A stretch of DNA of 64,000 nt. It comes from Minisyncoccota bacterium (GTDB lineage: Bacteria; Patescibacteriota; Minisyncoccia; Phycocordibacterales; UBA9973). The notes below the pieces were generated by a model that saw only the letters and a program-made list of their open reading frames with translations, was not told where the DNA came from and did no database searches. How positions within the stretch are numbered: position 1 is the first letter of the stretch; each line of letters opens with the position of its first letter. This document shows positions 1,506 to 55,020 of the stretch, piece by piece. The position numbers and the translations under genes were made by a program. Where the stretch lies: positions 24,626 through 88,625 of the forward strand of contig JAQULK010000001.1 of the NCBI GenBank assembly GCA_028718635.1, in the 5' to 3' direction.

Positions 1506-1702
1506 TTTACCACAAACGGAAGCAAGCCCATAAATCTAGCGCGCTTGATGGCTGTTGAAAGTTCTCGTTGATTTTTAGCGGTAACTCCAGTGCGTTTATG
1601 GCTCATGATTTTACCATTGGGATTCAAAAATTTCTTTAGAATTTCAATATCCTTGTAATCTATGTATTTTATATTGTTAGTTGAAAAATAATCTTGTTTC
1701 AT
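1502..1702 (-). CDS. rpsR: 30S ribosomal protein S18
   Basis: 66 aa; motif [27 protein letters not shown] typical of S18; last gene of rpsF-ssb-rpsR arrangement. Confidence 0.9.
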
Positions 1703-1820
1703 CCCGTTAGAAGTAGGTCGTGGTCTTAATTTTTGTAAAACTCTTACCTACTATTTTTATGTTTGATAATAATTTATTTTATTTCCCGTTATTTACTACG
1801 ACCGCGACTTCTAACGGGAT
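1701..1820. repeat. Intergenic palindromic element (ATCCCGTTAGAAG ... CTTCTAACGGGAT termini, AT-rich centre), copy 1: ssb-rpsR spacer
   Basis: Left arm ATCCCGTTAGAAGTAGGTCGTGGTC abuts rpsR ATG (1700-1702); right arm GACCGCGACTTCTAACGGGAT ends 5 nt after ssb stop. Confidence 0.8.
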
Positions 1821-1827
1821 TTCATTT

Positions 1828-2286
1828 TTAAAACGGTATGTCTTCTGGGTTAATGTCTTCTTCTGGGTATTCTATAGAATCAACTTCTCCTCCTCCTTCG
1901 CTCGCTGGAGCTTTTGAGCCTGTGCTTGTGGTACTCATACTTCCGCCCCCATTTCCTCCTTTGGGTCCGAACTGAGTGCGATCAGCGACTACTTCCGTAC
2001 GATATTTTTTCTCTCCGGTTGTTTTATCTTCCCAACTCCTTGTCTGCATTCTTCCCTCGATCAATATCGAGCTTCCTTTTTTCATATATTGAGAGACCGT
2101 CTCTGCTTGGCGGCCAAAAACCACAATGTTGTGATAATCAGCTGACTCTTGGCGTGTGCCATTTTTATCTTTCCAAACACGGTTAGTGGCAATAGAAAAT
2201 GTACAAACTTTTATGCCGGAAGGCAATGAACGAAGTTCTGGATCGCGTGTAAGATTTCCTATTAATATTGCTTTATTTAAATACAT
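1828..2286 (-). CDS. ssb: Single-stranded DNA-binding protein
   Basis: 152 aa; OB-fold N-term (AILIGNLTRDPELR...YHNIVVFGRQAE), Gly-rich tail ending in acidic DIPF motif typical of SSB. Confidence 0.85.
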   Translation of the reverse strand: MYLNKAILIGNLTRDPELRSLPSGIKVCTFSIATNRVWKDKNGTRQESADYHNIVVFGRQAETVSQYMKKGSSILIEGRMQTRSWEDKTTGEKKYRTEVVADRTQFGPKGGNGGGSMSTTSTGSKAPASEGGGEVDSIEYPEEDINPEDIPF

Positions 2287-2403
2287 CCCGTACGAAATAG
2301 GACGCGTACGCTTACACTACGTAGATCCTTTTTGTTATTAGTAATAATTTTTATCTTTTTCATAATATTTTTTACTTTCTGCGTCCGCGATTTCGTTCGG
2401 GAT
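2285..2403. repeat. Intergenic palindromic element, divergent copy 2: rpsF-ssb spacer
   Basis: ATCCCGTACGAAATAGGACGCG ... CGCGTCC..GATTTCGTTCGGGAT; left arm abuts ssb ATG (2284-2286). Confidence 0.6.
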
Positions 2404-2417
2404 ACATATTTTTTTAA

Positions 2418-2927
2418 TTAAGCTGCAACCAGTGCATCTATTTCTTTATCTATTTCTTCTTTGTTTATAGGAACAACCACTTCGTCACTTTTACTCTTGT
2501 CTATCTTGGCTCTTCGGTTTATAAATTCTCCGCGGGTAAATCTTTTCGTGTTGAAGGTATTTTCTTTAACCGTTTTTATTATTAAAAATCGGACGAGATT
2601 TGGATCGAGGTCGAGCTTCTTTTTCAATTTTAGAACTTCACCCGAATCCATCGTAAACTTAATCCAACCAAAATATCCTGTTTTGAATTTATTACGCACG
2701 TTGGCTATGACTTTAGTCATCGGATAAGCAAGCGTCATCATTTTTGGCATTTCATCAGAAATGGAAACACCGCCAAACGACAAAACAAGTTCCTTCAGGT
2801 TACCAAAAGTAGCTGGAATTTCTTCTTCAGAAAGTGTAGGCACTAAAAGATAGCCAAGTTCATAAACTCTAGAATTTGCTTCTGTTGATATATCATTTTC
2901 CACTTCTTGCATCCCGTTAGAAGTCAT
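2418..2927 (-). CDS. rpsF: 30S ribosomal protein S6 with C-terminal extension (true start may be the second ATG at 2910-2912)
   Basis: YELGYLLVP motif, position upstream of ssb-rpsR; 169 aa is long for S6. Confidence 0.7.
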   Translation of the reverse strand: MTSNGMQEVENDISTEANSRVYELGYLLVPTLSEEEIPATFGNLKELVLSFGGVSISDEMPKMMTLAYPMTKVIANVRNKFKTGYFGWIKFTMDSGEVLKLKKKLDLDPNLVRFLIIKTVKENTFNTKRFTRGEFINRRAKIDKSKSDEVVVPINKEEIDKEIDALVAA

Positions 2928-3011
2928 ACCAATTTTATTAAACCTTAAATATAATTAGAAAACTTTAAGTTAATTTATAATATAATCCCGAAAGGTGACT
3001 TCTAACGGGAT
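2911..3011. repeat. Intergenic palindromic element, copy 3: upstream of rpsF
   Basis: ATCCCGTTAGAAGTCA ... TGACTTCTAACGGGAT; left arm overlaps rpsF start codons. Confidence 0.75.
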
Positions 3012-3040
3012 TGCATAGGTTTCATACTATCAAAAACTCT

Positions 3041-3080
3041 TTAAAAAGTAAACCCCCACACTTATATATAAGTGTGGGGG
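3041..3080 (-). terminator. Rho-independent terminator downstream of tatD-like gene
   Basis: Perfect 14-bp stem CCCCCACACUUAUA/UAUAAGUGUGGGGG followed on minus strand by UUUACUUUUUAA. Confidence 0.7.
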
Positions 3081-3089
3081 TGAAGACTC

Positions 3090-3926
3090 TTAAATCCCAA
3101 AGACTCGCTTGGCATTTGCGACAATAGCCTTCGCCACTTCCGGTTCTGGTAGATTTTTTATTTCAGCAATTTTTTTCACGATTTCTTTCACATAGACAGG
3201 CTCATTGCGTTTACCTCTGTGCGGTACCGGCGCTACATAAGGAGAATCAGTCTCCGACATAATCATATCAAGTGGTATGTTTCTAATAACTTCATCATAA
3301 TCATGAGTAAAAGTAATAACTCCAGTAAAAGACAGAGTAAAACCAAAATCCAGAAATGCATTGGCCTCTTTTAGAGTTCCAGCAAAAAAGTGCACATTGC
3401 CTTTTACTCCAGGAAATTCTTTCAAAATCTCTAAAACATCTTGGTACGCATTTACACTAGGATCTTTTGGATTATTCCTAATGTGTAACATAAGTGGCTT
3501 CCGAGATTCTTGCGATAAGGAAACATGTTCTCTAAAAGTTTTTTTCTGTTTTTCTATTATCTCCAAACTGCAATGAAAATAATCTAAACCACATTCTCCT
3601 ATCGCTACCACCTTTGGATCTTTTAAAAATTCTTTGTAAGCATCTCTATCAAATTTTTCGACTTTGGTTTTGAAGCCGAGACCGCCAACCTCTTCATCAT
3701 CGTGATAGGATTCTTCAAGGTGAATAGGATGCAAACCAACTATTGCAAAAACTCCTTCTTGATATTCATTAGCAATTTCAACAGCCCTTTTTGAAGTGCT
3801 AAATTGGCTTCCCACATTTATCACCCATGTGTCATTTTCTAAAGCACGTTTTATAACCTCGTCCTTATCAGACTCAAAAGCCTTAAAATTTATATGTGAA
3901 TGAATGTCGATGTATTTAGGGGTCAT
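3090..3926 (-). CDS. TatD-family metal-dependent hydrolase/DNase
   Basis: 278 aa; N-term IDIHSHINF (HxH), later conserved His/Glu/Asp positions of the TatD amidohydrolase fold. Confidence 0.8.
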   Translation of the reverse strand: MTPKYIDIHSHINFKAFESDKDEVIKRALENDTWVINVGSQFSTSKRAVEIANEYQEGVFAIVGLHPIHLEESYHDDEEVGGLGFKTKVEKFDRDAYKEFLKDPKVVAIGECGLDYFHCSLEIIEKQKKTFREHVSLSQESRKPLMLHIRNNPKDPSVNAYQDVLEILKEFPGVKGNVHFFAGTLKEANAFLDFGFTLSFTGVITFTHDYDEVIRNIPLDMIMSETDSPYVAPVPHRGKRNEPVYVKEIVKKIAEIKNLPEPEVAKAIVANAKRVFGI

Positions 3927-3949
3927 AAAATATAATTGATAAATTCAAG

Positions 3950-3983
3950 AACCTCACCCTGCCCTCTCCTTATTAAGGAGAGG
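3950..3983. repeat. Family P palindrome, left TIR of DUF559 unit
   Basis: CCTCACCCTGCCCTCTCCTTATTAAGGAGAGGG, reverse complement of the 4359-4395 copy. Confidence 0.8.
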
Positions 3984-4335
3984 GTTTAGAATCAAGTTCA
4001 GTAATAATTTTTAAAATTACTCCATCAATGTTAACATTTATTTCATTATTCCAAAAACGAATTACTTTTATACCAAACACAGACAAATAATCTGACCTCT
4101 CTGCATCATATTCTTTATTTTCAATATGTTGTGATCCATCTATCTCAATCGCCAATTTTTTAAAAGGACAATAAAAATCCAAAACATATGGGCCAACAGA
4201 ATATTGTCTTTTTACTTTAAAACCTAGTTGATTATTTCTTACTTTATTCCAAAGAATCACTTCTTGGGGAGTTTGGGAACGTCTTAATAAGATGCGCTTA
4301 GTTAAATTCTTTGATTTATTATAGAAAACCGTCAT
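3973..4335 (-). CDS. DUF559 (Vsr-like / PD-(D/E)XK endonuclease fold) protein; C-terminus SKPSP is encoded inside the flanking GC-rich palindrome
   Basis: 120 aa; ...IEIDGSQH...GIKVIRFWNNEI pattern typical of DUF559; flanked by perfect 33-bp terminal inverted repeats (3950-3983 and 4359-4395). Confidence 0.65.
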   Translation of the reverse strand: MTVFYNKSKNLTKRILLRRSQTPQEVILWNKVRNNQLGFKVKRQYSVGPYVLDFYCPFKKLAIEIDGSQHIENKEYDAERSDYLSVFGIKVIRFWNNEINVNIDGVILKIITELDSKPSP

Positions 4336-4358
4336 AAAATATATTGTGGTATTTGTAT

Positions 4359-4395
4359 CCCCCTCTCCTTAATAAGGAGAGGGCTGGGGTGAGGT
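4359..4395. repeat. Family P palindrome, right TIR of DUF559 unit
   Basis: CCCTCTCCTTAATAAGGAGAGGGCTGGGGTGAGG. Confidence 0.8.
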
Positions 4396-4397
4396 TC

Positions 4398-5855
4398 TTA
4401 ATCCCTGCGTAGGAATAATGGTTCTTCTGGCATTTTATTTTCTATAATACATTTTTGTATTTTCTTAGATGTCTCAGGTATAAAAGGTTCAAGTAAAAGA
4501 GAAATTCTGTATAATTCCTTTATTAAATTTTCACGAATCATATTTTTCCCTTCTTCTGGATTTGATTTAACTAATTTGAATGGTTGTTCTTTTTGTATAT
4601 ATTTATCAAGACCTGAGATTTTCTCCCAGATTAAATCCATTGCTTCTTTAATATTGAAAACTTCTAGGGCAGTAATAATACTTGGATAGATAGTATCATC
4701 CTCAATTTTAATATTATTTAAAAAAACAGGAGAACTTTCAAAATTTGTTTCAGCCATTTTCATTATTCTACTCACTAAATTCCCCAATCCATTCGCCAGC
4801 CCTGCATTATAAGCTTCTTTGAATCTTTCTATTGTAAAAGGACTATCTTCAAAAGAAGAAATCTCGCGTAAAAGAAAATAACGCAAAGCATCAATGCCAT
4901 ATTCTTTTACAATATCATTCGGATTAATCACATTGCCTAAAGATTTAGACATTTTAATTCCGCCTTCGCCGGTAATAAAGCCATGATAAACAATAGTATC
5001 TGTATTAGGCAGTCCTGCCGACATGAGCATCCCTTGCCACATTACTGATTGAAATTTTACCATGTCTTTGCCAGCCATTTGAATATTTATGCCATCGCGC
5101 CAAAATCTTTCGAATTTTTCTTTATCATTAGGCCATCCTAGTGTAGAAATATAATTTACTAAAGCATCAAACCACACATACATGACTTGCGTATCGTCTC
5201 CTGGTATTTCAATCCCCCAAGAAAAACGCTCTTTATTGCGAGAAATAGAAAAATCCTCCATGCCATTTTTAACAAAATCAATAGCTTCAGCCCTCCGCCA
5301 CTCTGGAATTATTGATTTTTCATTCGATAAATATTCCAAAAGCTGTTTTTTATAATTCCCCAATCTAAAAAAATAATTTTCTTCTTCAACTATCTCGGGT
5401 TCCAAGTTTGGATGAAGTTGACACCTGCCATTTACTAAATCTTTTTCAGTAATAAATTTCTCGCACCCAACACAATAAAGTCCTTTATATTTCTTTTTAT
5501 AAATATCGCCCTTTGCTTCACAAAGACGCCACATCTCTTGTGCCGCCTTGATGTGTTTTTCGCTCGTGGTTCGAATAAAATTATCGTAGGAAAGATTTAG
5601 CACGCCCTTTAAATCTAGGAACTTCTGCGCATAAAAATCAACGTAATCTTGTACATCTTTACCCTGCTTTTGGCTTGCTTCTAAAATTTTTTGACCATGT
5701 TCATCCGTGCCAGTACTAAAAAAAACGTCTCTGCCTGCTAGCCGTTGATATCGGGCAAGAGCATCCGCCTGCACGAGCTCAAGTGCAAAACCGATATGCG
5801 GATCGGCATTTACGTAAGGTATTGTCGTCGTGATGTAAAAACTATTTTTGCTCAT
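4398..5855 (-). CDS. metG: Methionyl-tRNA synthetase (short form, no C-terminal tRNA-binding domain)
   Basis: 485 aa; class I HIGH-type motif PYVNADPHIGFA and KMSKSLGNVI. Confidence 0.9.
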   Translation of the reverse strand: MSKNSFYITTTIPYVNADPHIGFALELVQADALARYQRLAGRDVFFSTGTDEHGQKILEASQKQGKDVQDYVDFYAQKFLDLKGVLNLSYDNFIRTTSEKHIKAAQEMWRLCEAKGDIYKKKYKGLYCVGCEKFITEKDLVNGRCQLHPNLEPEIVEEENYFFRLGNYKKQLLEYLSNEKSIIPEWRRAEAIDFVKNGMEDFSISRNKERFSWGIEIPGDDTQVMYVWFDALVNYISTLGWPNDKEKFERFWRDGINIQMAGKDMVKFQSVMWQGMLMSAGLPNTDTIVYHGFITGEGGIKMSKSLGNVINPNDIVKEYGIDALRYFLLREISSFEDSPFTIERFKEAYNAGLANGLGNLVSRIMKMAETNFESSPVFLNNIKIEDDTIYPSIITALEVFNIKEAMDLIWEKISGLDKYIQKEQPFKLVKSNPEEGKNMIRENLIKELYRISLLLEPFIPETSKKIQKCIIENKMPEEPLFLRRD

Positions 5856-5972
5856 CCCGTTAGAAGCAGGTCGCGGTCACTACATCACCGCTATGCTTAA
5901 TTATGCTAATAAATTTTTTATATTTCATTTTATATTTTTATTTTAAACTGCGACCGCGGCTTCTAACGGGAC
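5854..5972. repeat. Intergenic palindromic element, copy 4: between membrane transporter gene and metG
   Basis: ATCCCGTTAGAAGCAGGTCGCGGTC ... GCGACCGCGGCTTCTAACGGGA; abuts metG ATG (5853-5855) and contains the upstream gene's stop (CTA at 5963-5965 = TAG on minus). Confidence 0.8.
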
Positions 5973-7045: not shown

Positions 7046-7082
7046 AAAAATATAATAACACAGAAAACGCTAAACCAAAAAG

Positions 7083-8351: not shown

Positions 8352-8358
8352 TATTAGA

Positions 8359-9726: not shown

Positions 9727-9738
9727 ATATTCGATTTA

Positions 9739-11670
9739 TTACTTTACGACGACCCCCCCGCCTGCGGGAAAGGCCACATCATTATCGAGTCGGGTGTTAA
9801 GGCCGGCTTTGCTTACTTTAATATCTACATTAGCAAAATCATCATGACCCGTCAAAACTGCTTCATTTATAATGAGTGGAATTGTATCGACTTGAGAAAG
9901 CGAGGGTTTAAAAGAAACTTGGAAAGAGACGCTGCGGGCAGGTTCTGTAATTCCAGAACCTTTAGGTATTCTATCTACGTTCCAAGTAATTTCTCTTGTA
10001 GAATCATTGTATGTCAGATCCTCTCCAGTTGGAGAAATTGGTCCAACAAAAGTCGTCCATGAAGGCAGGGTGGCTTTTACCTGCGCTTTTGAAATACTAT
10101 TAGCGGTATTGGAAAGCGTCCAAACGACAGTGTAAGTAGTAGACTGTTCGGCTTTCGGAGGTATCGGACCAGTGTTGGTAAAAGGTCCCGAATAATAAAG
10201 CGCTTTTCCGGAAAAACCTACATCCGAAATAATGTGCACAACCGCTCCGCTCGAATTATCAAGTTCATTTACGGCAGAACCTTCGGTGGCTTGATTGCCG
10301 GAGATGCTTATATCTATGTTAATAGTTGGATTTGCTAATATTCCATTAGATGCAGAAAACAAAGAAAGCGGAGAAATAGAAAAGGAGACAGAACCAGAAT
10401 CTCCCGGGTTCAATTCCTTTAATTGACTTTGAGAATTTTTATCCCAAGTAATAGTATCTTTAGATGAATCATAAAAACCTCGCTGCGTATTTACAGTGCT
10501 GCGATTAAAAGCATTTCCAGAAATCTTTGCTTTTATTTGCAAGTCATTCACTTTTGTATCTAAATTATTTAAATAACGAATTTCTGCCTTGATTGGCGTC
10601 TTTGTATCTACCGCATATTCTGTCTGGGATACGCCATTAATAAAAATATTCGCTTCAATAAAGGGTTTCTTAATCATCACAATATTCTTTATAGAATTTA
10701 AAACAACATCAATGACAGATTTGTCTGTACTGGATTGCGAACCGCTTGAAATATTAAAAGTTTTCTCTTCCCCGTCGAAAACGCCGACCATTTTCCCAGT
10801 GATAGTAATATCGTGCTCTGCTCCGGGCGCAAGATCACCCAAGTCCCAAACATTGTTGCCAAAAGAGGGTGCGGGCGTAGAATTTCCAAAAACAAATCCG
10901 AAAGGATAATCAGCTTTAACGAGTATATTAGAAATTGTTTTAGTAGCGTTTAGCGTAGCTTTGACATTCAGTGTAATGTCTTGATTGGGGCTGATCGAAA
11001 GAGGAGCATCTACTCCCAGATTTATCGGAGTGGAAGTTATATTCACTTTGAAATCTTTTTCTTTTACAAAAATGGCATTGGAGCCCGCTACTCTATACTC
11101 AAGACTTATTTTTATCGGGCGAATGCTTCCCTGTTCTCCAAAAAGAACTAATTTTACATTTTCATTGCGAGCCGCTCCAGCTGGAATCTCTCCGAGCGAA
11201 GTGCGAAAATGCTCGGCATCAGAAGACAGATCAATGTCTCCTCCTTTGGGATATTCCATAACAAGATCTGCTAATTCTAGTGCAGTAGTGTTTCTGTTTA
11301 CAATTCCTACAACTAGAGAAAGTTCTTCACCCCCGGCTGTAAAATTATTTCCTAGAATGGAAATATCTATATTGTTGTTGGAAACGGTGTTCCCCCCAAC
11401 AAAAAATACATAACCGGCATAACCCAAGGTTAAAACAAAAAAAACTATTGAAAAAATAAAAAATTTCTTAAATCTGGATGTTTTCATAAAAAACTTATTT
11501 TCGTCTTCAGATTCAATTTCTTCTTTTGTTTCCCAAGAATCTGACGCTTCATTTTTATATAAGTTGGAAAACACATCTCGATGCTCTATTTTAGTCTGAT
11601 AATTCTTGCTAAAAAGCTTGCTTTTTAAGTCTTCAATCTTATTGAGCTTTTTCATGTCATCTAATGGCAT
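9739..11670 (-). CDS. Hypothetical membrane-anchored protein with large Ser/Thr/Asn-rich extracytoplasmic domain
   Basis: 643 aa; single N-terminal TM helix (FFIFSIVFFVLTLGYAGYVFFV) after an acidic cytoplasmic segment; no recognisable catalytic motif. Confidence 0.4.
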   Translation of the reverse strand: MPLDDMKKLNKIEDLKSKLFSKNYQTKIEHRDVFSNLYKNEASDSWETKEEIESEDENKFFMKTSRFKKFFIFSIVFFVLTLGYAGYVFFVGGNTVSNNNIDISILGNNFTAGGEELSLVVGIVNRNTTALELADLVMEYPKGGDIDLSSDAEHFRTSLGEIPAGAARNENVKLVLFGEQGSIRPIKISLEYRVAGSNAIFVKEKDFKVNITSTPINLGVDAPLSISPNQDITLNVKATLNATKTISNILVKADYPFGFVFGNSTPAPSFGNNVWDLGDLAPGAEHDITITGKMVGVFDGEEKTFNISSGSQSSTDKSVIDVVLNSIKNIVMIKKPFIEANIFINGVSQTEYAVDTKTPIKAEIRYLNNLDTKVNDLQIKAKISGNAFNRSTVNTQRGFYDSSKDTITWDKNSQSQLKELNPGDSGSVSFSISPLSLFSASNGILANPTINIDISISGNQATEGSAVNELDNSSGAVVHIISDVGFSGKALYYSGPFTNTGPIPPKAEQSTTYTVVWTLSNTANSISKAQVKATLPSWTTFVGPISPTGEDLTYNDSTREITWNVDRIPKGSGITEPARSVSFQVSFKPSLSQVDTIPLIINEAVLTGHDDFANVDIKVSKAGLNTRLDNDVAFPAGGGVVVK

Positions 11671-11691
11671 ATATTGGATTGTAACATTTTT

Positions 11692-25458: not shown

Positions 25459-25486
25459 AAAACGATTATATCACATTAATTTTTAT

Positions 25487-34476: not shown

Positions 34477-34504
34477 AGAGAAATTGTATCATATTTAAAA
34501 AAAA

Positions 34505-35784: not shown

Positions 35785-36324
35785 TTAATAACTCCCTCTT
35801 AAAACAATCGTATCATAAAAATCTTGAGTATTGCCTGATGTATCATTGGCAGACTTAAGAGTTAAAACTATTTTAACTGCTTTTCCTTTGGTCGTATTTA
35901 TTTGAGTAAAAGCGAGAGCGGTCACTGTAGTATTGGGTGAATTTAGGTTTCCAATATTACTACCGGTATCCCAAAGTTGAATATTCGGACTAATAAATTT
36001 AAATTCAGTGGTTTTGCCACTTCCAGCATCAAGCACTAAATCATTTGTGCCGATGGAGATGATTCCGTTCGCTTGCCTGATTTCTCTCGACATCCTTTCC
36101 ATGATACTTCCACTTTGTACTAGTTCTGCCTGTATAGTAGTTTCCTTAAACGATCTTGCCATTGTTATCATGGCATTGATCACCAATGAAGAAAGAACCG
36201 AAAAAAAGGCAATATAAAAGAGAAGTTCTAAAACACCATATCCACCAGACAGCGCCTTAGGCGCTGTCTGAGCGCCTAAGGCGCTGTCTGGTTTTGTTTT
36301 CGCAGTTTTTCGCAGTGTTCGCAT
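35785..36324 (-). CDS. Type IV pilin-like (prepilin-type) protein; N-terminal region extended by two palindromic repeat copies
   Basis: 179 aa; class III signal SGG|YGVLELLFYIAFF with Glu at +5. Confidence 0.5.
   Translation of the reverse strand: MRTLRKTAKTKPDSALGAQTAPKALSGGYGVLELLFYIAFFSVLSSLVINAMITMARSFKETTIQAELVQSGSIMERMSREIRQANGIISIGTNDLVLDAGSGKTTEFKFISPNIQLWDTGSNIGNLNSPNTTVTALAFTQINTTKGKAVKIVLTLKSANDTSGNTQDFYDTIVLRGSY
36244..36290. repeat. CCAGACAGCGCCTAAGGCGCTGTCTGG palindrome, tandem 1.5 copies, inside the 5' coding region of pilin-like gene
   Basis: Encodes KPDSALGAQTAPKALSGG just before the prepilin cleavage motif. Confidence 0.6.
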
Positions 36325-40567: not shown

Positions 40568-41785
40568 TTAATTTATGCTTCCTAAAATTGAATAAAGCGG
40601 GGAAATCATCGAGATTGCAAAAAAACCGACTCCAGCCCCGATAACGATCATTAGTAATGGCTCAATAATTGTGGAGAGATTTTTGGTTTTATTTTCAACC
40701 TCTTCTTCATAAAACAAAGCAATCTCGAGCAGCATATCAGATAATTTTCCTGTCTCTTCTCCGACTTGAATCATTTCTGACATCATTACAGGATATAAAT
40801 TCTGGTGAGCCTCAAAGGCTTTAGAAAAAGGTTCTCCCTTTTCTATCGCTAATTTTGCTTCATTTAAAACTTTTTTATAATAAATATTTTGCACCACGTC
40901 TTGCGTGATTTCAATTGCTCTTGTGATAGAAACACCAGAAGACAAAAGAGAAGAAACAGTACGTGCAGTACGCGCAGTGTTTAATTCTCTTGTTAAATTA
41001 TTAACAATTGGGATCTTTAAAACAATAAAATCAATATATGGAGCCATAAATTTGGCTCGAAAAAGAGAAAAAATGCCAAAAGCTGCCCCAAAAATAATTA
41101 CAAAGGTCAATATCAAATTATTGGAAAAAAAATTACCAACAAAAACAAGTATTTGAGTGGAAAGAGGCAATTTCACTCCGAGTTCTTTAAAGGTGCCTGC
41201 TAAAGTGGGAACCACGAAAGCAAACATTAAAACACCGATAATAACCATCGCCGACATAATAACGCTAGGATAAATGAGCGCACCTTTTATTTTTTTAGTC
41301 AAGGAACTTGATTTTTCAAGATTTAATCCAATATCAGAGAGCGCTCCGGCAAGATTCCCAGATTCTTCCCCGGCGCGAACCATTGAAACGAAAAGTTTTG
41401 AAAAAACATCAGGAAATTTTGCAAGAGCGGAAGAAAAAGTTTCTCCGGAATCTATATCATTTACCAAAGATGTTAAAATTCTACTAAGTTTAGGATTTTT
41501 TGTTTGCTTTTTTAAAACCGATAAAGCTCTGGAAAGCGAAAGGCCCGCTTTTATCATTCCGCTTAAATTTTTAGTAAAGATAATCTGTTCTCCGATTTTT
41601 ATTTTTGTAAAAACACCGGATAATGCCAAGAATTTATTAACAAAATTTTCTTTTTTTTCTGTAATTGATAACGGAATGTATCCGCGCGAACGCAATTCAC
41701 GAGCAAGAGCATAGCGATCAGTGGCGTCTAAAATACTTTCCAAAATTTCCCCTGTTTTTGATTTTGCGCTGTAAGAAAAAAGCAT
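40568..41785 (-). CDS. pilC: Type II secretion / type IV pilus platform protein (GspF/PilC family)
   Basis: 405 aa; two T2SSF repeats, 3 TM segments, characteristic length. Confidence 0.75.
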   Translation of the reverse strand: MLFSYSAKSKTGEILESILDATDRYALARELRSRGYIPLSITEKKENFVNKFLALSGVFTKIKIGEQIIFTKNLSGMIKAGLSLSRALSVLKKQTKNPKLSRILTSLVNDIDSGETFSSALAKFPDVFSKLFVSMVRAGEESGNLAGALSDIGLNLEKSSSLTKKIKGALIYPSVIMSAMVIIGVLMFAFVVPTLAGTFKELGVKLPLSTQILVFVGNFFSNNLILTFVIIFGAAFGIFSLFRAKFMAPYIDFIVLKIPIVNNLTRELNTARTARTVSSLLSSGVSITRAIEITQDVVQNIYYKKVLNEAKLAIEKGEPFSKAFEAHQNLYPVMMSEMIQVGEETGKLSDMLLEIALFYEEEVENKTKNLSTIIEPLLMIVIGAGVGFFAISMISPLYSILGSIN

Positions 41786-41905
41786 CCCGTTAGAAGCAGA
41801 TCGCGATCAATTCACGCGTCTGACTTTTTTTGTTACAAATATTTCTAATATTTAATTTCATATTTTTATTTAGTTTTAAATTGCGATCGCGGCTTCTAAC
41901 GGGAT
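41784..41905. repeat. Intergenic palindromic element, copy 5: pilB-pilC spacer
   Basis: ATCCCGTTAGAAGCAGATCGCGATC ... GCGATCGCGGCTTCTAACGGGAT; inner stem co-varies with copy 4 (GGTC/GACC -> GATC/GATC); abuts pilC ATG; partial arm duplication GGGATTACTCTGGGATTACTCC before pilB stop. Confidence 0.8.
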
Positions 41906-41915
41906 TACTCTGGGA

Positions 41916-43866: not shown

Positions 43867-43867
43867 G

Positions 43868-45349: not shown

Positions 45350-45429
45350 AATTTTATTATTATACTCCCTACGCTATAAAAAATACACAATGAGTTATCC
45401 ACAGAAACACAGAAATACAACCTTACATC

Positions 45430-45452
45430 CTAGCAAGAACTGTTCTTGCTAG
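45430..45452. repeat. Hairpin CTAGCAAGAAC TG TTCTTGCTAG downstream of DUF4143 ATPase gene
   Basis: Perfect 10-bp stem; partner copy at 46632-46654. Confidence 0.6.
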
Positions 45453-46585: not shown

Positions 46586-46631
46586 TATACATACCTAAAA
46601 TAGCAAGTATGAAACTATTTTAAGTAATCCC

Positions 46632-46654
46632 CTAGTAAGAACTGTTCTTACTAG
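46632..46654. repeat. Hairpin CTAGTAAGAAC TG TTCTTACTAG upstream of DUF4143 ATPase gene
   Basis: Same hairpin with a compensated C/T-G/A change. Confidence 0.6.
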
Positions 46655-46656
46655 TT

Positions 46657-47418: not shown

Positions 47419-47740
47419 TGAATTTAATATTTTTTATTTTTGTAATGGGAGATGCTTCGGATGGTTGACTCAGAATTTTGAGTCGCTCTTCATCAGTCAT
47501 GTTTGGATTTGCTGGAGGAATATTTGATGGTTTTTGTAATATTTCTAGCCGCTGTTCATCTGTAAGAGACGGGGGAGATTTCGGCCGAGAAATAAAGTAA
47601 AAAATAAGAAGACCAAAAAGAATAATAATTAAAATAGCAATCGCTATTTTTTGATATCTAATTAAATGACTTTTAATCATGGATTCAATTATAAAGCAAA
47701 AGAAAGATGATGTGAAATAGGGGGTGTGGATAACCCCCAC
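47408..47740 (-). CDS. Small hypothetical membrane-anchored protein
   Basis: 110 aa; one TM helix; repeated TDE(Q/E)RL(E/K)IL motif; overlaps downstream gene by 11 nt. Confidence 0.35.
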   Translation of the reverse strand: MGVIHTPYFTSSFFCFIIESMIKSHLIRYQKIAIAILIIILFGLLIFYFISRPKSPPSLTDEQRLEILQKPSNIPPANPNMTDEERLKILSQPSEASPITKIKNIKFNEN

Positions 47741-48235
47741 ACCTTTCTTGGTATCGCTTTTTTTCTGCTAATAAAAATAGTTAATAATAATATTTATTTT
47801 AATATAAATTGTAATCGTAGTGGTACTTCTAATGAAAAAGCAGAATAATACCAAGAAAGGTGTGGGGGATAACCCTTTCACTATACTTTTGCTCAAAAGG
47901 TGTGGAGGTCATATAATAATTATTATGTATTATGTTTATATTCTTAAGAGTTTAAAAGATGGAAAACTATATGTTGGATCAACCAATGATCTGAAGCGAA
48001 GACTTTCGGAACACAATAACGGACTTAATCGTTCAACAAAAGCTAGACGTCCTTTTGAGCTTCGATATTATGAAGCTTGTGCTAGTGAAAGTGATGCCCG
48101 AACTAGAGAATATAATCTAAAGAAAGATGGAAAAGCACTTGGGCAACTTAAAAGAAGAATTTCCGAAAGTCTTAAATAAATCCCCACAACCTATTTGGAT
48201 AGGTGTGGGGATAAAATGAAAGGTGTGGATAACTA
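47715..48235. repeat. Cluster of GAAAGGTGTGG(G)GATAAC repeats (two contain perfect DnaA-box 9-mers TGTGGATAA) flanking the GIY-YIG gene
   Basis: Copies at about 47716-47745 (inverted pair), 47857-47875, 48185-48200 (inverted), 48204-48214, 48221-48235; AT-rich stretch 47760-47830. Confidence 0.5.
47925..48179 (+). CDS. Stand-alone GIY-YIG nuclease-domain protein (YhbQ-like)
   Basis: YYVYILKSLKDGKLYVGSTNDLKRRLSEHN = GIY-YIG signature; ORF track starts at 47820 but the internal ATG gives the typical 85-aa protein. Confidence 0.7.
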   Translation: MYYVYILKSLKDGKLYVGSTNDLKRRLSEHNNGLNRSTKARRPFELRYYEACASESDARTREYNLKKDGKALGQLKRRISESLK

Positions 48236-48416
48236 TGCGACTCAGCTTGCTATTTCTGTAGAAATGTGGTATGGTACCTAAAGAAAACAATGTCAGTTCT
48301 CTGACAACTAAAAAAGTCAACCTGACCTTTTGGGTTGGGTTTAAAATAAAAGTGAAAAAATGCACGCGGACGGCCAGTTAGCGCGTCGGTGCAAAGAAAG
48401 AAAGGTAGGTAGAAAG

Positions 48417-49988: not shown

Positions 49989-49998
49989 GGTCGATCTC

Positions 49999-50045
49999 AA
50001 ATGGGCTCCCTTCAGCATGAAGGGAGCCCATTATTACTTTAATTT
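49999..50045 (+). terminator. Rho-independent terminator after secreted-protein gene
   Basis: 15-bp stem AAUGGGCUCCCUUCA / UGAAGGGAGCCCAUU, loop GCA, U-rich tail. Confidence 0.7.
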
Positions 50046-50131
50046 GAAATAAAAAGGAGTGTTGACTAACTTTTTATAATAAAATACAATGAAACTGTGA
50101 GTAATTATCAGTTCGGTCAAACATTATCAAT

Positions 50132-50716
50132 ATGGACAGTTTAATAGCAAAATTATATCAATCACCAAAAACAATCCTATCTAACAAGGATTTGGCTTTG
50201 ATTTGGCAGGAAAATAACGAAGAAAGTTTATACGCCAAAACTGCCTACTATGTAAAACAAAAAGCTCTAATCAGATTGACTCGGGGAGTTTTTGCTAAAA
50301 AAAAAGATTACAATCCAAAAGAATTGGCAACCAGTATTTACACTCCGTCTTATATCAGCTTCGAAACAGTTTTGAGAGAGGCCGGTGTCATTTTCCAACA
50401 CTACGATACAATATTTGTAGCTTCTAAATGGCCTAAAACAATGACTATAGATAAAAATACTTTTACCTTCAGAAAATTGAAAGATGCTATCCTGTTTAAT
50501 TCCACTGGTGTTGTCAATAAAGATAACTACAGCGTGGCCACCGCAGAAAGGGCATTCTTGGATATGATTTATTTATTTCCGAATTATTACTTTGATAATT
50601 TGAAATCGATCGACTGGGGTAAATGCAATGAATTAGTAAAAATTTACAACAACAAAGAATTAATAAAACGATTGAATAAATATCGCAAAAATTATCAAGA
50701 AAAAAATGTTGAATAG
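50132..50716 (+). CDS. abiEi: AbiEi-like antitoxin/transcriptional regulator (type IV TA, abortive-infection system)
   Basis: 194 aa; N-terminal wHTH-like segment with LIRLTRGVF resembling the AbiEi_4 RGxY motif; immediately upstream of and overlapping the AbiEii-like gene. Confidence 0.5.
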   Translation: MDSLIAKLYQSPKTILSNKDLALIWQENNEESLYAKTAYYVKQKALIRLTRGVFAKKKDYNPKELATSIYTPSYISFETVLREAGVIFQHYDTIFVASKWPKTMTIDKNTFTFRKLKDAILFNSTGVVNKDNYSVATAERAFLDMIYLFPNYYFDNLKSIDWGKCNELVKIYNNKELIKRLNKYRKNYQEKNVE

Positions 50717-51419
50717 GCAAAAACATCAATTAATAATGAGTCGGATTTTGAAGGACATCTATACCGATATTACGATCAGTCCGCTCTTGGGATTCAAGGG
50801 TGGCACTTGCGCCTATTTTTTCTATAATCTGCCAAGGTTCTCGGTGGACTTGGATTTTGATTTGTTGGTGGTGAATGACGAAAATCAAAAAATAGTATTT
50901 GAAAAAATTGTTGCTATCTTAAAAAGATACGGAGAAGTCAAAGATCAATACATCAAGAGATTTACTGTCTTTGCTCTGCTCTCCTACGGTGATGACGACC
51001 ATAATATCAAGGTTGAAATTAATGTTAGAAAATTGATAGAAAACATTCAAGACCACTATGAGATGAAGGAATATCTTGGCATCTCCATGTTTGTCGCCAA
51101 AAAAGATTATTTGTTTGCGAGCAAACTCTCGGCTTTGACCTTGAGAAGCGAAACCGCAATGAGAGACATTTATGATATTCACTTTTTTGCCAAAAATAGT
51201 TGGGATATTAATGCTGAAGTTATCAAAGAAAGAACCGGCAAAACCACCAAGGAATACTTGGCTGCTTGCATAGCATTTATAGAAAAAGTAAAGGGCAATC
51301 AAATTTTGCAGGGATTGGGGGAACTTGTTGATAGTGAAAAAGAAAAAGCGTGGATTAGAAATCATTTGAAATCCGACTCTATCTTCATGCTGAAAAATTA
51401 TATGTCGGTAATAAAATAA
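50706..51419 (+). CDS. abiEii: AbiEii/AbiGii-family nucleotidyltransferase toxin (DUF1814)
   Basis: 237 aa; LLGFKGGTCAYFFYNLPRFSVDLDFDL matches the GGTAL...RFSEDLDF nucleotidyltransferase motif of DUF1814. Confidence 0.65.
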   Translation: MLNRQKHQLIMSRILKDIYTDITISPLLGFKGGTCAYFFYNLPRFSVDLDFDLLVVNDENQKIVFEKIVAILKRYGEVKDQYIKRFTVFALLSYGDDDHNIKVEINVRKLIENIQDHYEMKEYLGISMFVAKKDYLFASKLSALTLRSETAMRDIYDIHFFAKNSWDINAEVIKERTGKTTKEYLAACIAFIEKVKGNQILQGLGELVDSEKEKAWIRNHLKSDSIFMLKNYMSVIK

Positions 51420-51465
51420 TTTTTAGGTTGCAAAAAAATACCATCTATGATATTATTCTAGTGTG

Positions 51466-51500
51466 TAAGTCCTGTCGCAACAGGGCTTTTATTTTTAAAA
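51466..51500 (+). terminator. Rho-independent terminator after abiEii-like gene
   Basis: 9-bp stem AAGUCCUGU/ACAGGGCUU with CGCA loop then UUUAUUUUUAAAA. Confidence 0.55.
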
Positions 51501-51509
51501 ACTTAATAG

Positions 51510-51536
51510 CCAGACAGCGCCTAAGGTGCTGTCTGG
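51510..51536. repeat. Second copy of CCAGACAGCGCCTAAGGTGCTGTCTGG palindrome, immediately upstream of nusA start
   Basis: Near-identical to 36244-36290. Confidence 0.6.
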
Positions 51537-52743
51537 TGCAAAAAAATTTATGTTAGACATAAAAACATTCAGGTCAGCGTTGGAACAATTGGAGGAAGAG
51601 AGGAAAATCCCAAAAGAAAAAATACTGGAAGCTATAGAGCAAGCGATGGCCGCTGCTTATAAAAAAGATTATGGCAAGAAAGGACAAATCATCCGAGCAA
51701 AGTTCGATATGGAAACTGGTAAAACAGATTTTTTCCAAGTAAAAATCGTGGTAGACGAAAGTATCGCCATTATGGATGACGAAAGACCCCTACCCAACCT
51801 CCCCCTTAATAAGGGGGAGGAGCAAGGAGGGGGTGCAGACGAGCGCGTGCATTTTAATTCCGAACATCACATTCTTCTCGAAGACGCAAAAAAAATTACA
51901 AAGGGAGCCGAGCTAAATGACGAAATAATTTTTCCACTAGAACAAAAAGACAATTATGGACGCATCGCCGCACAGACCGCCAAGCAAGTCATCATCCAGA
52001 AGATCCGCGAGGCAGAACGCACTTCTATTATAGATGAATATGGCACCAAAGAGGGCGAGGTTATTTCCGGCATAGTGCAAAAAGTAGAAAGAGGAAACGT
52101 CTATGTCGATTTCAACAGAGCTACCGGAATATTGCCTACCGAAGAACAAATCCCAGGAGAATATTGGACTCGCGGACAAAGAATCCGAGCTTATCTTTAT
52201 AGCGTGGAAGACACTCATCGAGGCATCAACTTGCGCCTTTCTCGAACTCATCCCAAATTTGTAGAAAAACTTTTTGCCATAGAAGCGCCAGAGATAGAAA
52301 ACGGCATAGTAGAGATTAAATCTATTGCGCGTGAAGCAGGCGCTCGTTCAAAAATTGCGGTTTATTCAAACGACGAGCACATCGATCCAGTCGGCTCTTG
52401 CGTCGGCCAAAAAGGAACCAGAGTAAACACTATCACCACCGAACTTTCCGGAGAAAAAATCGACATCATTCCTTGGTCCTCTGATCCTTCTCAATTCATT
52501 TCTAATTCTCTTTCTCCAGCCAAAGTTATTTCGATTGTTATAGACGAGAAAGAACACAAGGCCATCGTGGAAGTGGCCAACGATCAGCTGTCGCTCGCCA
52601 TCGGCAAAGGCGGACAAAATGTGCGCCTCGCCGCCAAACTGACCGGCTGGAGGATAGACATAAAAGGCGATGATTTGTCTGCGCAAACAGAAAAAGAAGT
52701 TGTTAAAAATGAAGAAGACGTTAAGGAAGATGAATCCCGTTAG
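51526..52743 (+). CDS. nusA: Transcription termination/antitermination factor NusA (probable true start ATG about 51551); contains in-frame palindrome-encoded insert RPLPNLPLNKGEEQGGG
   Basis: NusA N-domain, S1 domain (GEVISGIVQKVERGNVYVDF), two KH domains (GSCVGQKGTRV, LAIGKGGQNVRLAAKLTGW); stop TAG inside repeat arm. Confidence 0.85.
   Translation: MLSGAKKFMLDIKTFRSALEQLEEERKIPKEKILEAIEQAMAAAYKKDYGKKGQIIRAKFDMETGKTDFFQVKIVVDESIAIMDDERPLPNLPLNKGEEQGGGADERVHFNSEHHILLEDAKKITKGAELNDEIIFPLEQKDNYGRIAAQTAKQVIIQKIREAERTSIIDEYGTKEGEVISGIVQKVERGNVYVDFNRATGILPTEEQIPGEYWTRGQRIRAYLYSVEDTHRGINLRLSRTHPKFVEKLFAIEAPEIENGIVEIKSIAREAGARSKIAVYSNDEHIDPVGSCVGQKGTRVNTITTELSGEKIDIIPWSSDPSQFISNSLSPAKVISIVIDEKEHKAIVEVANDQLSLAIGKGGQNVRLAAKLTGWRIDIKGDDLSAQTEKEVVKNEEDVKEDESR
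51787..51836. repeat. Family P palindrome, in-frame inside nusA
   Basis: CCCCTACCCAACCTCCCCCTTAATAAGGGGGAGGAGCAAGGAGGGGGTG. Confidence 0.75.
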
Positions 52744-52887
52744 AAGTCATTTTATTGGGATGAATCCCGTTAGAGATCAGTTGGTTAATATAAAAATTAA
52801 AAATGTTTTGTTATAATAAATTTAGTCGACATTAATAAGTTAATTTATGGTACGGGAATGCAAAGCATTCCCTATCTCTAACGGGAT
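52734..52887. repeat. Intergenic palindromic element, copy 6: nusA-hppA spacer, with duplicated left arm
   Basis: nusA stop TAG lies in ATCCCGTTAGAAG; second arm ATCCCGTTAGAGATCAG pairs with CTATCTCTAACGGGAT whose last G starts hppA ATG; tandem in-frame stops. Confidence 0.8.
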
Positions 52888-54910
52888 GAATCAATTTTTA
52901 TCGTTTGCGATCATTAGTTCGTTTGTCGCTATTGTTTACGGTTTGTTTTTGGCTAAATCAATATTAAAAAAGAGTCCTGGAAATACTCGCATGCAGGAAA
53001 TTGCGAAAGCAATTCAAGAAGGGGCTAGCGCATATTTAAATAAACAATATAAAACTATCAGCATTATTGCGGTGATCCTTTTCTTTATCATCGGTTTGGT
53101 GCCAAAACTCGGATGGACTATGGCTTTTGGATTTTTAGTCGGAGCTATTTTTTCTGGTCTTGCAGGCTATATAGGTATGAACGTATCTGTCAGAGCAAAT
53201 GTCCGCACGACCGAAGCTGCTAAGAGTGGCATAAATGAAGCGCTTTCCCTGGCCTTTAAGGGCGGTACAGTTACCGGACTTTTAGTAGTCGGCTTGGCTC
53301 TCTTGGGCGTAACAGCTTTTTATGCAATTACAAAAGATGTCCCTGCGCTTGTAGGGCTTGGTTTCGGCGCTTCCCTTATTTCAATCTTTGCAAGATTGGG
53401 CGGAGGAATTTTTACAAAAGCAGCCGATGTCGGCGCTGACCTTGTAGGCAAGCTTGAAGCAGGCATTCCAGAAGACGATCCAAGAAACCCCGGAGTTATC
53501 GCAGACAATGTCGGGGACAATGTCGGGGATTGCGCTGGCATGGCAGCTGATTTATTTGAAACTTATGCTGTCACCTCAGTCGCTACGATGTTGCTCGGCT
53601 CGCTTCTTTTTGTCGGTTTTGAAAATGCAGTCATCTACCCTCTCGTAATAGGCGGTATGGCAATATTCGCATCTATTATCGGTACTTGGTTTGTGCGCTT
53701 AGGCAAAAGCAAGGAGGGTCAAGAAAATATAATGGGCGCCTTATACAAAGGCCTCATCGCCTCTGGTGTCATCGCAGCTGTTTTATTTTATCCTGTTACC
53801 AATATTCTTATGGCAGGAAATGGAAAATATGCAGTAATAGATTTATTCATTTGCTCTTTGGTTGGTCTCTTTGTTACTGGAGCGCTTGTCGTCATTACAG
53901 AATATTTCACTTCTACAAAATACTATCCCGTAAAATCTATCGCGGAAGCATCGGCTTCCGGTCATGGCACAAATGTTATTCAAGGTTTGGCTATTTCCAT
54001 GAAAGCTACTGCCTTGCCTTTGATCACAATCGTTTTAGGAATATTGATTAGTTATAGTTTTGGCGGACTTTATGGAATCGCCGTAGCTGCGATGTCTATG
54101 CTTTCAATGACAGGGATAATTGTGGCGATAGATGCCTATGGTCCTATCACCGACAACGCGGGAGGTATTGCAGAAATGGCAGAACTTCCAGAATCAGTTC
54201 GAAACATCACTGATCCTTTAGATGCAGTTGGAAACACTACCAAGGCTGTTACAAAAGGTTATGCTATCGGTTCTGCTGGACTTGCCGCACTGGTTCTTTT
54301 TGCCTCTTATACAGAAGAAATTATAAAAGCTGGAAAAAGTATCAATTTTGATCTAAGTAATCCATTTGTAATTATGGGACTCTTTTTAGGAGGACTTCTT
54401 CCCTACTATTTCGGAGCGCTTTGCATGGAAGCAGTGGGAAAAACTGCCGGAAAAGTGGTAGAAGAAATCCGAAGACAATTCAGAGAAATAAAAGGAATTA
54501 TGGAAGGCACTGCAAAACCGGATTACGCAAAAGCTGTTTCAATCATTACGGGTGCCGCTATCAAGCAAATGATCTTGCCCGCCCTTATACCAGTCCTTGC
54601 TCCAATTTTAGTGATTGTTCTTTTTGGAAAAGAAAAAGGGTTTGTTGTTTTAGGCGGTCTTCTTGTCGGCTCCATCGTTACAGGACTTTTCGTTGCCATT
54701 TCGATGACCTCAGGCGGAGGCGCATGGGACAATGCTAAAAAACACATAGAACAAGGCAATCACGGAGGCAAAGGAAGTGAGGCTCATAAAGCTGCAGTTA
54801 CTGGTGATACTGTCGGAGATCCTTACAAAGACACAGCCGGCCCTGCCATCAACCCTATGATAAAAATCCTAAACATAGTTGCCTTGCTTTTAGTTATTTT
54901 ATTGATGTAA
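52886..54910 (+). CDS. hppA: Membrane-bound proton/sodium-translocating pyrophosphatase
   Basis: About 675 aa, 15-16 TM; [35 protein letters not shown] signature; start placed at ATG directly after TCTAACGGG (MNQFLSF). Confidence 0.9.
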
Positions 54911-55020
54911 TCCCGTTAGAGGCCGCGGTCGCATATGGGAAGAAGAATTAGAAAATTATTATTAATTTAATTTAGGCAGTATGTAAGTTCAATGCGAACG
55001 CGACCTGCCTCTAACGGGAT
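54910..55020. repeat. Intergenic palindromic element, copy 7: hppA-tig spacer
   Basis: hppA TAA overlaps ATCCCGTTAGAGGCCGCGGTCGC ... GCGACCTGCCTCTAACGGGAT directly followed by tig ATG; arm change AGAAG->AGAGG compensated by CTTCT->CCTCT. Confidence 0.8.

Follow-up and report, generated by a model that had tools for sequence, protein, structure and literature searches.

A stretch of 64,000 nucleotides from a Minisyncoccota bacterium (contig JAQULK010000001.1 of assembly GCA_028718635.1, positions 24,626 to 88,625; the whole stretch is called the window below) contains seven palindromic intergenic elements of 101–124 bp, each of which runs directly into the start codon of a gene, and one internally deleted remnant. 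These spacers probably derive, as miniature and non-autonomous versions, from a mobile element whose parent form is approximately 280 bp long, has 13-bp inverted ends and encodes a GIY-YIG protein. The elements of the window make up a new family within a known kind, namely transposable elements of the miniature inverted-repeat type (MITEs), with a coupling to the host gene similar to that of the interspersed repetitive units of mycobacteria (MIRUs), and the parent may be a new class of transposon. Full-text literature searches, which included the arm sequences, found no published description of the element.

Arms, start codons and target site

The arm sequence ATCCCGTTAGA, with at most one mismatch, was found 13 times in the window, compared to 0.87 expected, and forms the inverted pairs ATCCCGTTAGA/TCTAACGGGAT listed in Table 1. 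The copy before ssb has variant arms (ATCCCGTACGAAAT and ATTTCGTTCGGGAT), which are still complementary to each other, and every copy has perfect arms of 11–14 bp. The seven elements with shared inverted termini described in the initial annotation, which was made by a model from the sequence alone, are thus confirmed, as is its statement that in all seven the terminal G is followed by an ATG: each right arm ends in ...CGGG (...TCTAACGGG) and is followed by the ATG of a real gene (rpsR, ssb, rpsF, metG, a T2SSF/pilC gene, hppA and tig). That annotation overlooked a second ATG, usual in the opposite flank, so that a direct repeat ATGN...ATGN brackets the elements. We note that the window is AT-rich (38% G+C), and that most of its genes have a −10-like TAnnnT box 6–9 nt upstream of the ATG and are without a Shine-Dalgarno sequence, an organization of the leaderless type (examples are at 9727–9745, 25459–25475 and 34477–34492).

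The exact two-arm pattern was then used to scan genomes, with one genome per species, and was found in at least 120 DNA stretches from species-representative genomes. The abutment of the start codon holds beyond the window: one side adjoins an ATG in 141 of the 145 elements recovered from 121 sources, and in 127 of these 141 the host-side ATG opens an open reading frame (ORF) of at least 60 amino acids. The downstream proteins span 151 Pfam families, with at most four per family, and no gene-family preference was found among these targets.

Oriented by the gene, the junctions read ATG-N-AT|CCCG on the left and CGGG|AT-G-N on the right. The duplication between them is 2 bp long in 97 of the 141 copies, 3 bp in eight and 1 bp in seven. 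The preferred target is ATG-R-A, with a purine following the ATG in 90% of the copies as against approximately 57% of all gene starts in the window. The motif TANNNT peaks 6–9 nt before the left ATG, as it should if transcription starts of leaderless genes make up many of the targets. The insertion site is AT|GN|A(A/T) of a start codon, often that of a leaderless gene directly downstream of its −10 box. The original ATG remains at the 5′ end of the element, and because the element terminates in ...CGGGAT, an ATG is rebuilt at its 3′ end. Taken across the aligned junctions, these features show the target to be the start codon, with a target-site duplication.

Among the matches listed, the hosts are almost all Patescibacteria (Saccharibacteria, many Parcubacteria lineages, Levyibacteria and Kerfeldbacteria), and few lie outside this group (Sedimentisphaerales/Planctomycetes of the Planctomycetota, Omnitrophota and WOR-3). 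Copies in the Sedimentisphaerales/Planctomycetes and Omnitrophota (loci L063, L078, L079, L083 and L089; L numbers denote loci from other genomes) form a subfamily of their own with the arm extension AGACCT/AGGTCT. This subfamily likewise sits on ATGAA starts, which points to transfer between phyla. The same scan of viral contigs gave no matches, and thus no sign of a phage vector.

Empty and filled sites

The rpsF-ssb-rpsR loci of relatives were reached through homologues of the window Ssb and RpsR. In L121/L122, where Ssb is 95% identical to that of the window, the rpsF-ssb and ssb-rpsR gaps are 11 and 36 nt long, and in L124 (Ssb 88% identical) they are 4 and 11 nt long. We conclude from these gaps of 4–36 nt that the rpsF, ssb and rpsR sites are empty in these relatives. 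The comparison with L121/L124 gives the insertion events directly: at rpsF, gatagtATGAAACCTATGCAAGAAG became ...ATGCA[element]GCAAGAAG, duplicating GCA; at ssb, ATGTATTTA became ATGT[element]GTATTTA, duplicating GT; and at rpsR, ATGAAACAAG became ATGAA[element]GAAACAAG, duplicating GAA. The filled sites thus carry a duplication of 2–3 bp that takes in the G of the start codon. The variant-arm subfamily has, in L123, inserted independently at the rpsR start, and at the same position.

Other sites in the window have histories of the same kind. The tig site is empty in L115, while the hppA site is filled both there and in the window, where it holds an older, deleted copy and a second insertion in tandem with it. 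The closest relative fetched, Candidatus Nomurabacteria RIFOXYD2_FULL_35_12, is syntenic with the window at 76% nucleotide identity, and a ‘Pacebacteria’ contig of 672 kb carries an Ssb 100% identical to that of the window. Tandem arrays of two or three elements, with only a duplicated GA between them, were observed at L012:5898-6280, L062:5472-5712 and L014:7673-7895; such arrays are expected if each insertion recreates its own target.

The comparison of orthologous spacers in relatives, which the initial annotation had proposed, reveals presence/absence polymorphism; it shows that the elements are mobile and that their insertions are polymorphic between close relatives. The suggestion of a MITE with a strict target preference is thereby supported, and it can be extended by the target duplications and by the coding parent described below. 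In contrast, the idea that the elements punctuate the rpsF-ssb-rpsR operon as an RNase III processing cassette is not supported: the same operon lacks the element in relatives with 95% identical Ssb, and the element is therefore not a conserved operon cassette.

The upstream stop codons reported to lie inside the opposite arm were found as described only for metG (TAG at 5965–5963). The TAG of nusA lies in the remnant and not in the intact hppA element, and the TAA of hppA touches only the first base of the tig element. Nor does the element ‘supply’ these stops. At metG, the upstream ORF formerly overlapped the start codon, ending in ...NNEQK, and it now ends within the arm as ...NNESR; this case indicates that stops within arms are by-products of insertion into overlapping gene ends.

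A full-length element encodes a GIY-YIG nuclease

The parent was uncovered through an odd cluster of arms in L073. This locus contains a 276-bp copy in which the same arms enclose an 84-residue ORF whose product has the catalytic domain of GIY-YIG nucleases (PF01541, E = 3.6e-16); the ORF ends in ...GASYL and uses the TAA of the right arm as its stop. When metagenomes were scanned with the L073 protein as query, relatives were found to be encoded at more than 471 loci. The best 80 of these were examined for arms, and in 69 of them the ORF is framed by both. The full-length copies have a median length of 281 bp. Of 74 distinct copies, 48 adjoin an ATG and are bracketed by the same ATGN repeats, and some have AC...GT ends that restore a GTG instead. 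The coding parent is thus shown, by the identity of its arms, to have the same ends as the miniature copies, and it is on these approximately 280-bp versions that we base the description of the window copies as miniature, MITE-like derivatives. What the miniature copies share with the parent is confined to the ends and the 3′ strand of a stem termed P3 (see below). L033 is nearly identical to the parent in these parts, and L113:3930 retains the start of the nuclease gene.

The parent protein matches the UPF0213 proteins 1zg2 and 1ywl in the PDB (E = 4.5e-10), which places its catalytic domain in the UPF0213/YhbQ/Slx1 branch of the GIY-YIG nucleases. Against the group I intron endonuclease family TIGR01453 it scores 19.6–30.4 bits, where the cut-off is 56. 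The UPF0213/YhbQ family has been grouped with the structure-selective nuclease Slx1 (PMC7017083).

One alternative is an ordinary MITE of a DDE transposon (insertion sequence or IS type), in which an unseen conventional transposase acts on the inverted ends, and the GIY-YIG gene would be no more than cargo or an insertion nested in the element. Inverted ends with short duplications of variable length (1–3 bp) are classic signatures of a transposase, and small GIY-YIG genes also occur with quite different flanks (L004 and L012). However, 69 of 80 independent loci have the ORF framed exactly by the arms; the stop codon of this ORF belongs to the right arm, and its conserved DLRKRL codons contain the 5′ strand of P3. 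These three features argue that the nuclease gene is an integrated part of the element and not the result of chance nesting. In addition, a search for long-range arm pairs in 120 genome loci (approximately 0.9 Mb of flanks), made in order to find an autonomous copy, gave nothing convincing, and in particular no long arm pair around another gene. We regard a DDE origin as unlikely.

The window also encodes a stand-alone GIY-YIG protein (Table 1), which is a candidate for a nuclease that might act in trans. The gene has a TATAAT box 7 nt upstream of its ATG. Beside it is a 27-nt inverted duplication, GGATAACCCCCACACCTTTCTTGGTAT, at 47728–47754 and 47848–47874, which extends across two divergent GTG starts, and motifs of the type GGTGTGGGG recur around the gene and at 3048–3085. 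Other small GIY-YIG genes, at L004:4454-4645 and L012:2229-2462, have differing surroundings: one lies directly downstream of a tRNA-like half sequence and the other between direct repeats of approximately 40 nt (TATTCCGCAGTAGCTCTCCGCCAGCTGGCGGAGG), which suggests that they may be further mobile GIY-YIG cassettes.

Folding and covariation

Long-hairpin folds are obtained for all seven window copies, whose RNA z-scores relative to dinucleotide shuffles range from −3.9 to −6.4. RNAalifold identified 20 base pairs in these seven copies, eight of them with double compensatory changes. The outermost helix, P1, consists of AU, then CCCGUUAGA, then three covarying pairs (positions 10–12), each of which is more than 93% Watson-Crick and uses three or four pair types. 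Two layouts were found inside P1. In type A (44 copies), a 4-nt bulge on the 3′ side (ACCU, AUCU or UCCU) is followed by a helix P1b of 7–9 bp, for which there are 26 distinct stem pairs, and the AT-rich variable part forms the apical loop. In type B (37 copies), the order after the variable part is ‘AC’, a local hairpin P3 of 7 bp, a single bulged U and the 3′ strand of P1, and there are 36 distinct P3 stems. In the full-length copies, P3 is instead a long-range pairing in which the DLRKRL codons meet those of the C terminus: 63 of 75 copies have a complement of 9 nt with no more than one mismatch, and compensatory variants occur. Covariation of P1, P1b and P3 extends across more than 140 copies and, for P3, even into the coding sequence of the parent. 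The alignments therefore show that the structure covaries, in support of the compensatory inner stems, and of the selection on a hairpin, that had been proposed from the seven window copies.

The orientation of the element relative to the gene is strongly biased, at 81:8. At stem positions that are not Watson-Crick, G.U (38) exceeds A.C (20) on the sense strand (p = 0.025), a modest asymmetry that does not separate folding as RNA from folding of the sense-strand DNA. Together, the orientation and the excess of G.U indicate that the sense strand is the folding strand, either as RNA or as single-stranded DNA.

Strong sense-strand folds, compensatory stems, the slight excess of G.U over A.C, the fixed orientation and the inclusion of the start-codon AU in the helix are all features of a conserved cis-regulatory RNA, that is, a leader or punctuation of housekeeping genes (an RNase III site, thermosensor or start-codon sequestrator) selected by the host and inherited only vertically. 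This explanation is largely refuted by the three start codons that lack the element in genomes with 88–95% identical Ssb. It is also opposed by the 151 unrelated gene families downstream, by the target duplications, the tandem and remnant copies and the coding parent, and by an Rfam 15 covariance-model scan of the whole window, which gave no matches at the gathering score. We consider it extremely improbable; on the evidence of the compared loci, the elements are not a conserved regulatory leader.

Another explanation is site-specific recombination. The joined ends, ...TCTAACGGG-ATGAAT-CCCGTTAGA..., would form a core similar to lox, dif or attC, at which a tyrosine recombinase would insert a folded or circular element, with the ATGRA repeat as the crossover region rather than a duplication. 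Inverted arms of 11–13 bp about an asymmetric core of 5–7 bp do resemble recombinase sites, the element is always at least approximately 80 bp long, and the target is similar to the element junction (ATGRAW). There is also a likeness to the hairpins of integron attC and CTX-phage attP, which act as folded single strands: these are imperfect palindromes of 57–141 nt with covarying stems, extrahelical bases and a variable centre, and their outer boxes (RYYYAAC/GTTRRRY) resemble TCTAAC/GTTAGA here, the attC R boxes in particular. However, the order of the boxes is reversed, with GTTAGA...TCTAAC in our elements and R″(RYYYAAC)...R′(GTTRRRY) in attC. The junctions of our elements lie at the base of the hairpin, and their flanks are housekeeping genes and not the ends of IntI cassettes. 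Moreover, no arm-like half-sites were seen in the target flanks, the full ATGRAT occurs in only 28% of the targets, and the enzyme linked to the element is a nuclease and not an integrase. We therefore think a recombination module very unlikely. The resemblance to Xer/dif and attC, and that of the ends to piggyBac, was judged superficial.

Short reading frames end beside the host start codon

In the parent, the ORF ends at a TGA overlapping the host ATG (33 copies) or at the arm TAA (25 copies), and only in two copies is it fused in frame with the host gene; the corresponding contexts are UGA overlapping the host AUG (AUGA) and UAA-CGGG-AUG. For 18 of the 60 intact copies, the ORF extends back without interruption across the left arm to the left ATG taken from the host (MNPVRD...MFYTY...), and other full-length copies have a mini-ORF of six codons that terminates 6–8 nt upstream of the nuclease ATG.

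Upstream ORFs (uORFs) were counted in 141 miniature copies in the gene sense, as ATG-started frames of at least 20 codons unless stated, and compared with shuffles. Those ending at the arm TAA are found in 46 of 141 copies (9.0 ± 3.0 in shuffles, maximum 18; five in the antisense), and those whose TGA stop overlaps the host ATG in 20 (7.5 ± 2.8 in shuffles), such that ORFs with either stop are enriched three- to fivefold in the gene sense. In contrast, ORFs in frame with the host gene are depleted (2 vs 7.9). When uORFs of two codons or more are included, 90 of 141 copies have a coupled uORF, compared to 46.8 ± 5.2 in shuffles. The metG and pilC copies of the window, with uORFs of 22 and 23 codons that stop at the arm TAA, are examples. 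The ORF frames in the elements are thus statistically non-random. The enrichment of the two kinds of stop, together with the depletion of in-frame fusions, points to translational coupling. Since the enriched frames are the two frames of the parent ORFs, this design looks built in: translation that enters the element stops beside the host AUG. A link to translation, as proposed in the initial annotation, is therefore plausible by way of short ORFs and termination-reinitiation, and the simple sequestration of the start codon that it envisaged is not what we favor.

It could be argued that the ORFs of the miniature copies are functionless relics of the nuclease ORF and that the host genes use internal promoters or direct initiation. 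The enriched frames are exactly the two frames of the parent, an ATG-started uORF is missing from 40 of the 141 copies (among them the rpsR copy of the window), and the rpsF, hppA and tig copies of the window instead have short in-frame upstream ATGs behind a −10-like box. Against this, the interiors are AT-rich and cannot be aligned to the parent, yet 26 copies have an open frame of 38–39 codons between the left ATG and the arm TAA, compared to 5.8 ± 2.3 in composition-matched shuffles; in-frame fusions are depleted; and the antisense strand has no excess. We consider the relic explanation doubtful, and these counts suggest that part of the uORF signal may be selected rather than inherited.

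Two further ideas were tried and rejected. Translational bypassing, with a hop from the first AUG to the second, is unnecessary because open frames and stops exist. Neither a CGGGAT decoy within the element nor an internal promoter at a fixed place is a general feature, since they are present in only about one-third of copies and at a position that is fuzzy.

Proposed mechanism

The element inserts at a start codon and thereby duplicates 2 bp (sometimes 1 or 3), starting with G. We propose that in this position it would borrow the promoter and the start signal of the host gene. Ribosomes starting either at the 5′ AUG that was captured or at one inside the element would translate the element, terminate beside the host AUG and re-initiate there, and the insertion would be nearly harmless, since ribosomes are passed on to the host gene. 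The miniature copies may retain the same logic as short ORFs in the same two frames. Mobility would be driven by the GIY-YIG protein: the long helix formed by both ends (P1 with P1b or P3, with its bulged U or ACCU) is a plausible substrate for a structure-specific nuclease of this kind, which would make a short staggered cut. Short staggered cuts of 2 nt are typical of the GIY-YIG fold. In the mRNA, the same helix may also tie translation of the host gene to the passage of ribosomes upstream.

Several observations weigh against this mechanism and against the derivation of the window copies from a GIY-YIG parent. We know of no GIY-YIG protein that acts as a transposase, and the parent protein is a catalytic domain of 84 residues with no obvious DNA-binding domain. 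No full-length copy lies within the window, and the GIY-YIG gene of the window has no flanking arms. A MAFFT alignment of miniature with full-length copies aligned only the ends and not the interiors. The left ATG is absent in 24 of 141 copies, the uORF in the 40 mentioned above, and part of the uORF excess could stem from the parent ORF rather than from selection. Finally, all the sequences come from metagenome assemblies.

Comparison with known elements

The closest analogy is to the MIRUs, mobile units that insert at start codons and carry a coupled ORF (PMC12548453, citing Supply et al. 1997). Both are short mobile repeats with start-codon insertion and an internal ORF coupled to the host gene (by a −4 overlap, ATGA, in MIRUs), and both have hosts rich in leaderless mRNAs (PMC12548453). 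Our elements share with MIRUs the insertion at the start codon and the stop that abuts or overlaps the host ATG, but as a functional analogy only. MIRUs are direct or tandem units of 46–101 bp with no long inverted ends and no known coding parent, whereas the present family has 13-bp inverted ends, a helix of approximately 25 bp, a duplication of 2–3 bp, a full-length form encoding a GIY-YIG protein, and a range that crosses phyla. There is no sequence relationship: the copies do not belong to the MIRU sequence classes, their hosts are Patescibacteria and not mycobacteria, and they are mostly single and not tandem.

The Correia elements of Neisseria, ERIC/IRU and RUP are similar in having 100–150 bp, terminal inverted repeats, a short duplication, intergenic dispersal, co-transcription and hairpins. 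They differ in that their duplications are TA or AT-rich, they are not bound to start codons and their ancestors are DDE insertion sequences; our elements duplicate GN(N) at a start codon and have a parent that encodes a GIY-YIG protein. The Rickettsia palindromic elements are likewise selfish palindromes that survive in expressed regions by staying compatible with translation. However, they lie in frame inside ORFs and are translated within the protein, whereas our elements avoid in-frame fusion and place a stop beside the host ATG. Repetitive extragenic palindromes (REP/REPIN) with a RAYT gene do not fit, as neither a GTAG-type doublet nor an HUH gene lies beside arms in the 0.9 Mb.

Like the GIY-YIG homing endonuclease genes T4 Seg and I-TevI, the parent is a selfish gene whose sole product is a nuclease, located between or at the edges of host genes. 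Homing endonucleases, however, have a DNA-binding domain, a single cognate site and homologous repair, with neither inverted ends nor duplications. The parent encodes a bare 84-residue domain outside the intron endonuclease family, has inverted ends and duplications, hits hundreds of genes and has miniature derivatives.

The copies agree with the definition of a MITE in their terminal inverted repeats, the duplication seen in empty and filled sites, the insertion polymorphism, and the longer coding element with the same ends, although the parent's enzyme is not of a known transposase type. We advance a wider interpretation, and only tentatively, as we do not hold it to be the likelier outcome: the parent might represent an unrecognised class of prokaryotic transposon, whose sole protein is a bare Slx1/YhbQ-like nuclease that cuts the base of its own cruciform or hairpin. 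Such an element would be a parasite of leaderless start codons, capturing the promoter and the 5′-terminal AUG and returning the ribosome by termination-reinitiation; it would have spread over the Patescibacteria and into Planctomycetota and Omnitrophota, and would spawn miniatures.

If correct, this would be a new lifestyle for selfish DNA in streamlined genomes such as those of Patescibacteria, which have almost no spare DNA: the start codon is occupied and rebuilt, and the coupling keeps the element harmless. It would tie the stand-alone UPF0213/YhbQ proteins, which are widespread and functionally obscure, to mobile elements, and would make the GIY-YIG nuclease a candidate transposition enzyme. 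It would also provide a natural system, defined by sequence, for leaderless initiation and for re-initiation independent of Shine-Dalgarno sequences in uncultured bacteria. For annotation, we note that the elements shift predicted starts, since gene callers choose ATGs inside the element, and yield spurious N- or C-terminal extensions. As marks of recent insertion polymorphism at the level of strains, they can be used for population tracking.

Copies and other repeats in the window

The window copies and the GIY-YIG gene are listed in Table 1.

Table 1. Start-codon elements and the stand-alone GIY-YIG gene of the window (positions in the window; minus-strand codons are given in reading direction).
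Feature	Position	Strand	Host gene and ATG	Left-flank ATG	Duplication	Arm pair	Remarks
Copy 1	1701..1820	-	rpsR, 1702-1700	1825-1823	GAA (1823-1821 and 1700-1698)	1701/1810	Long-hairpin type (P1 + P1b); no ATG-started uORF; empty counterpart aaaaaaATGAAACAAG in L121/L124
Copy 2	2285..2403	-	ssb, 2286-2284	2407-2405	GT		Variant-arm subfamily CCCGAACGAAAT / ATTTCGTACGGG; same arm variant at rpsR of L123
Copy 3	2911..3011	-	rpsF, 2912-2910	3016-3014	GCA	2911/3001	P1 of 16 bp; upstream of the left ATG, -10-like TAGTAT + 7 nt (leaderless-type promoter)
Copy 4	5854..5972	-	metG, 5855-5853			5854/5962 (one side reads GTCCCG)	Internal 22-codon uORF 5928-5860, MKYKKFISIIKHSGDVVTATCF, stop at right-arm TAA 4 nt upstream of metG ATG; upstream ORF now terminates at left-arm TAG
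Copy 5	41784..41905	-	T2SSF (pilC-like), 41785-41783	decayed to GAGTA		41784/41895	23-codon uORF 41861-41790, MKLNIRNICNKKSQTRELIAICF, stop at arm TAA
Stand-alone GIY-YIG gene	47925..48179	+					84 aa; 58% identical to the nuclease of the full-length element
Remnant of older copy	52734..52763	+				solo arm 52734	Left arm ATCCCGTTAGAAGTCA and degenerate right end TGGGAT; contains the TAG of nusA; arm identical to the intact orthologous hppA element in L115
Copy 6	52764..52887	+	hppA, 52886-52888	52760-52762	GA	52764/52877	Type B: local hairpin P3 52854-52861 / 52865-52872, bulged T 52873, then P1 3′ strand
Copy 7	54910..55020	+	tig, 55019-55021	54905-54907		54910/55010	TAA of hppA (54908-54910) formed from mutated duplicate; element absent in related genome L115

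Other repeats were observed in the window. Inside the tig ORF, at 55511–55583, there are GC-rich palindromes (CCTCCCCGAAGGGGAGG and CCTCCCCTTCGGGGAGG) in a stretch that cannot be aligned to the tig of L115. An AT-rich inverted repeat of 24 nt (1396–1419 and 1488–1511, 83% complementary) lies between the ends of the ORF at 818..1396 and rpsR. The palindrome CCAGACAGCGCCTAAGGCGCTGTCTGG is repeated at 36245–36291 and 51510–51536, with five arm matches compared to none expected; one copy is immediately upstream of the GTG start of nusA, and the element is REP-like. Finally, a perfect inverted repeat of 19 bp with a spacer of 68 nt (672–690 and 759–777) lies between two plus-strand ORFs and has an 81% identical copy in another Nomurabacteria genome (L110:7830-7912); it probably represents a second MITE-like family.

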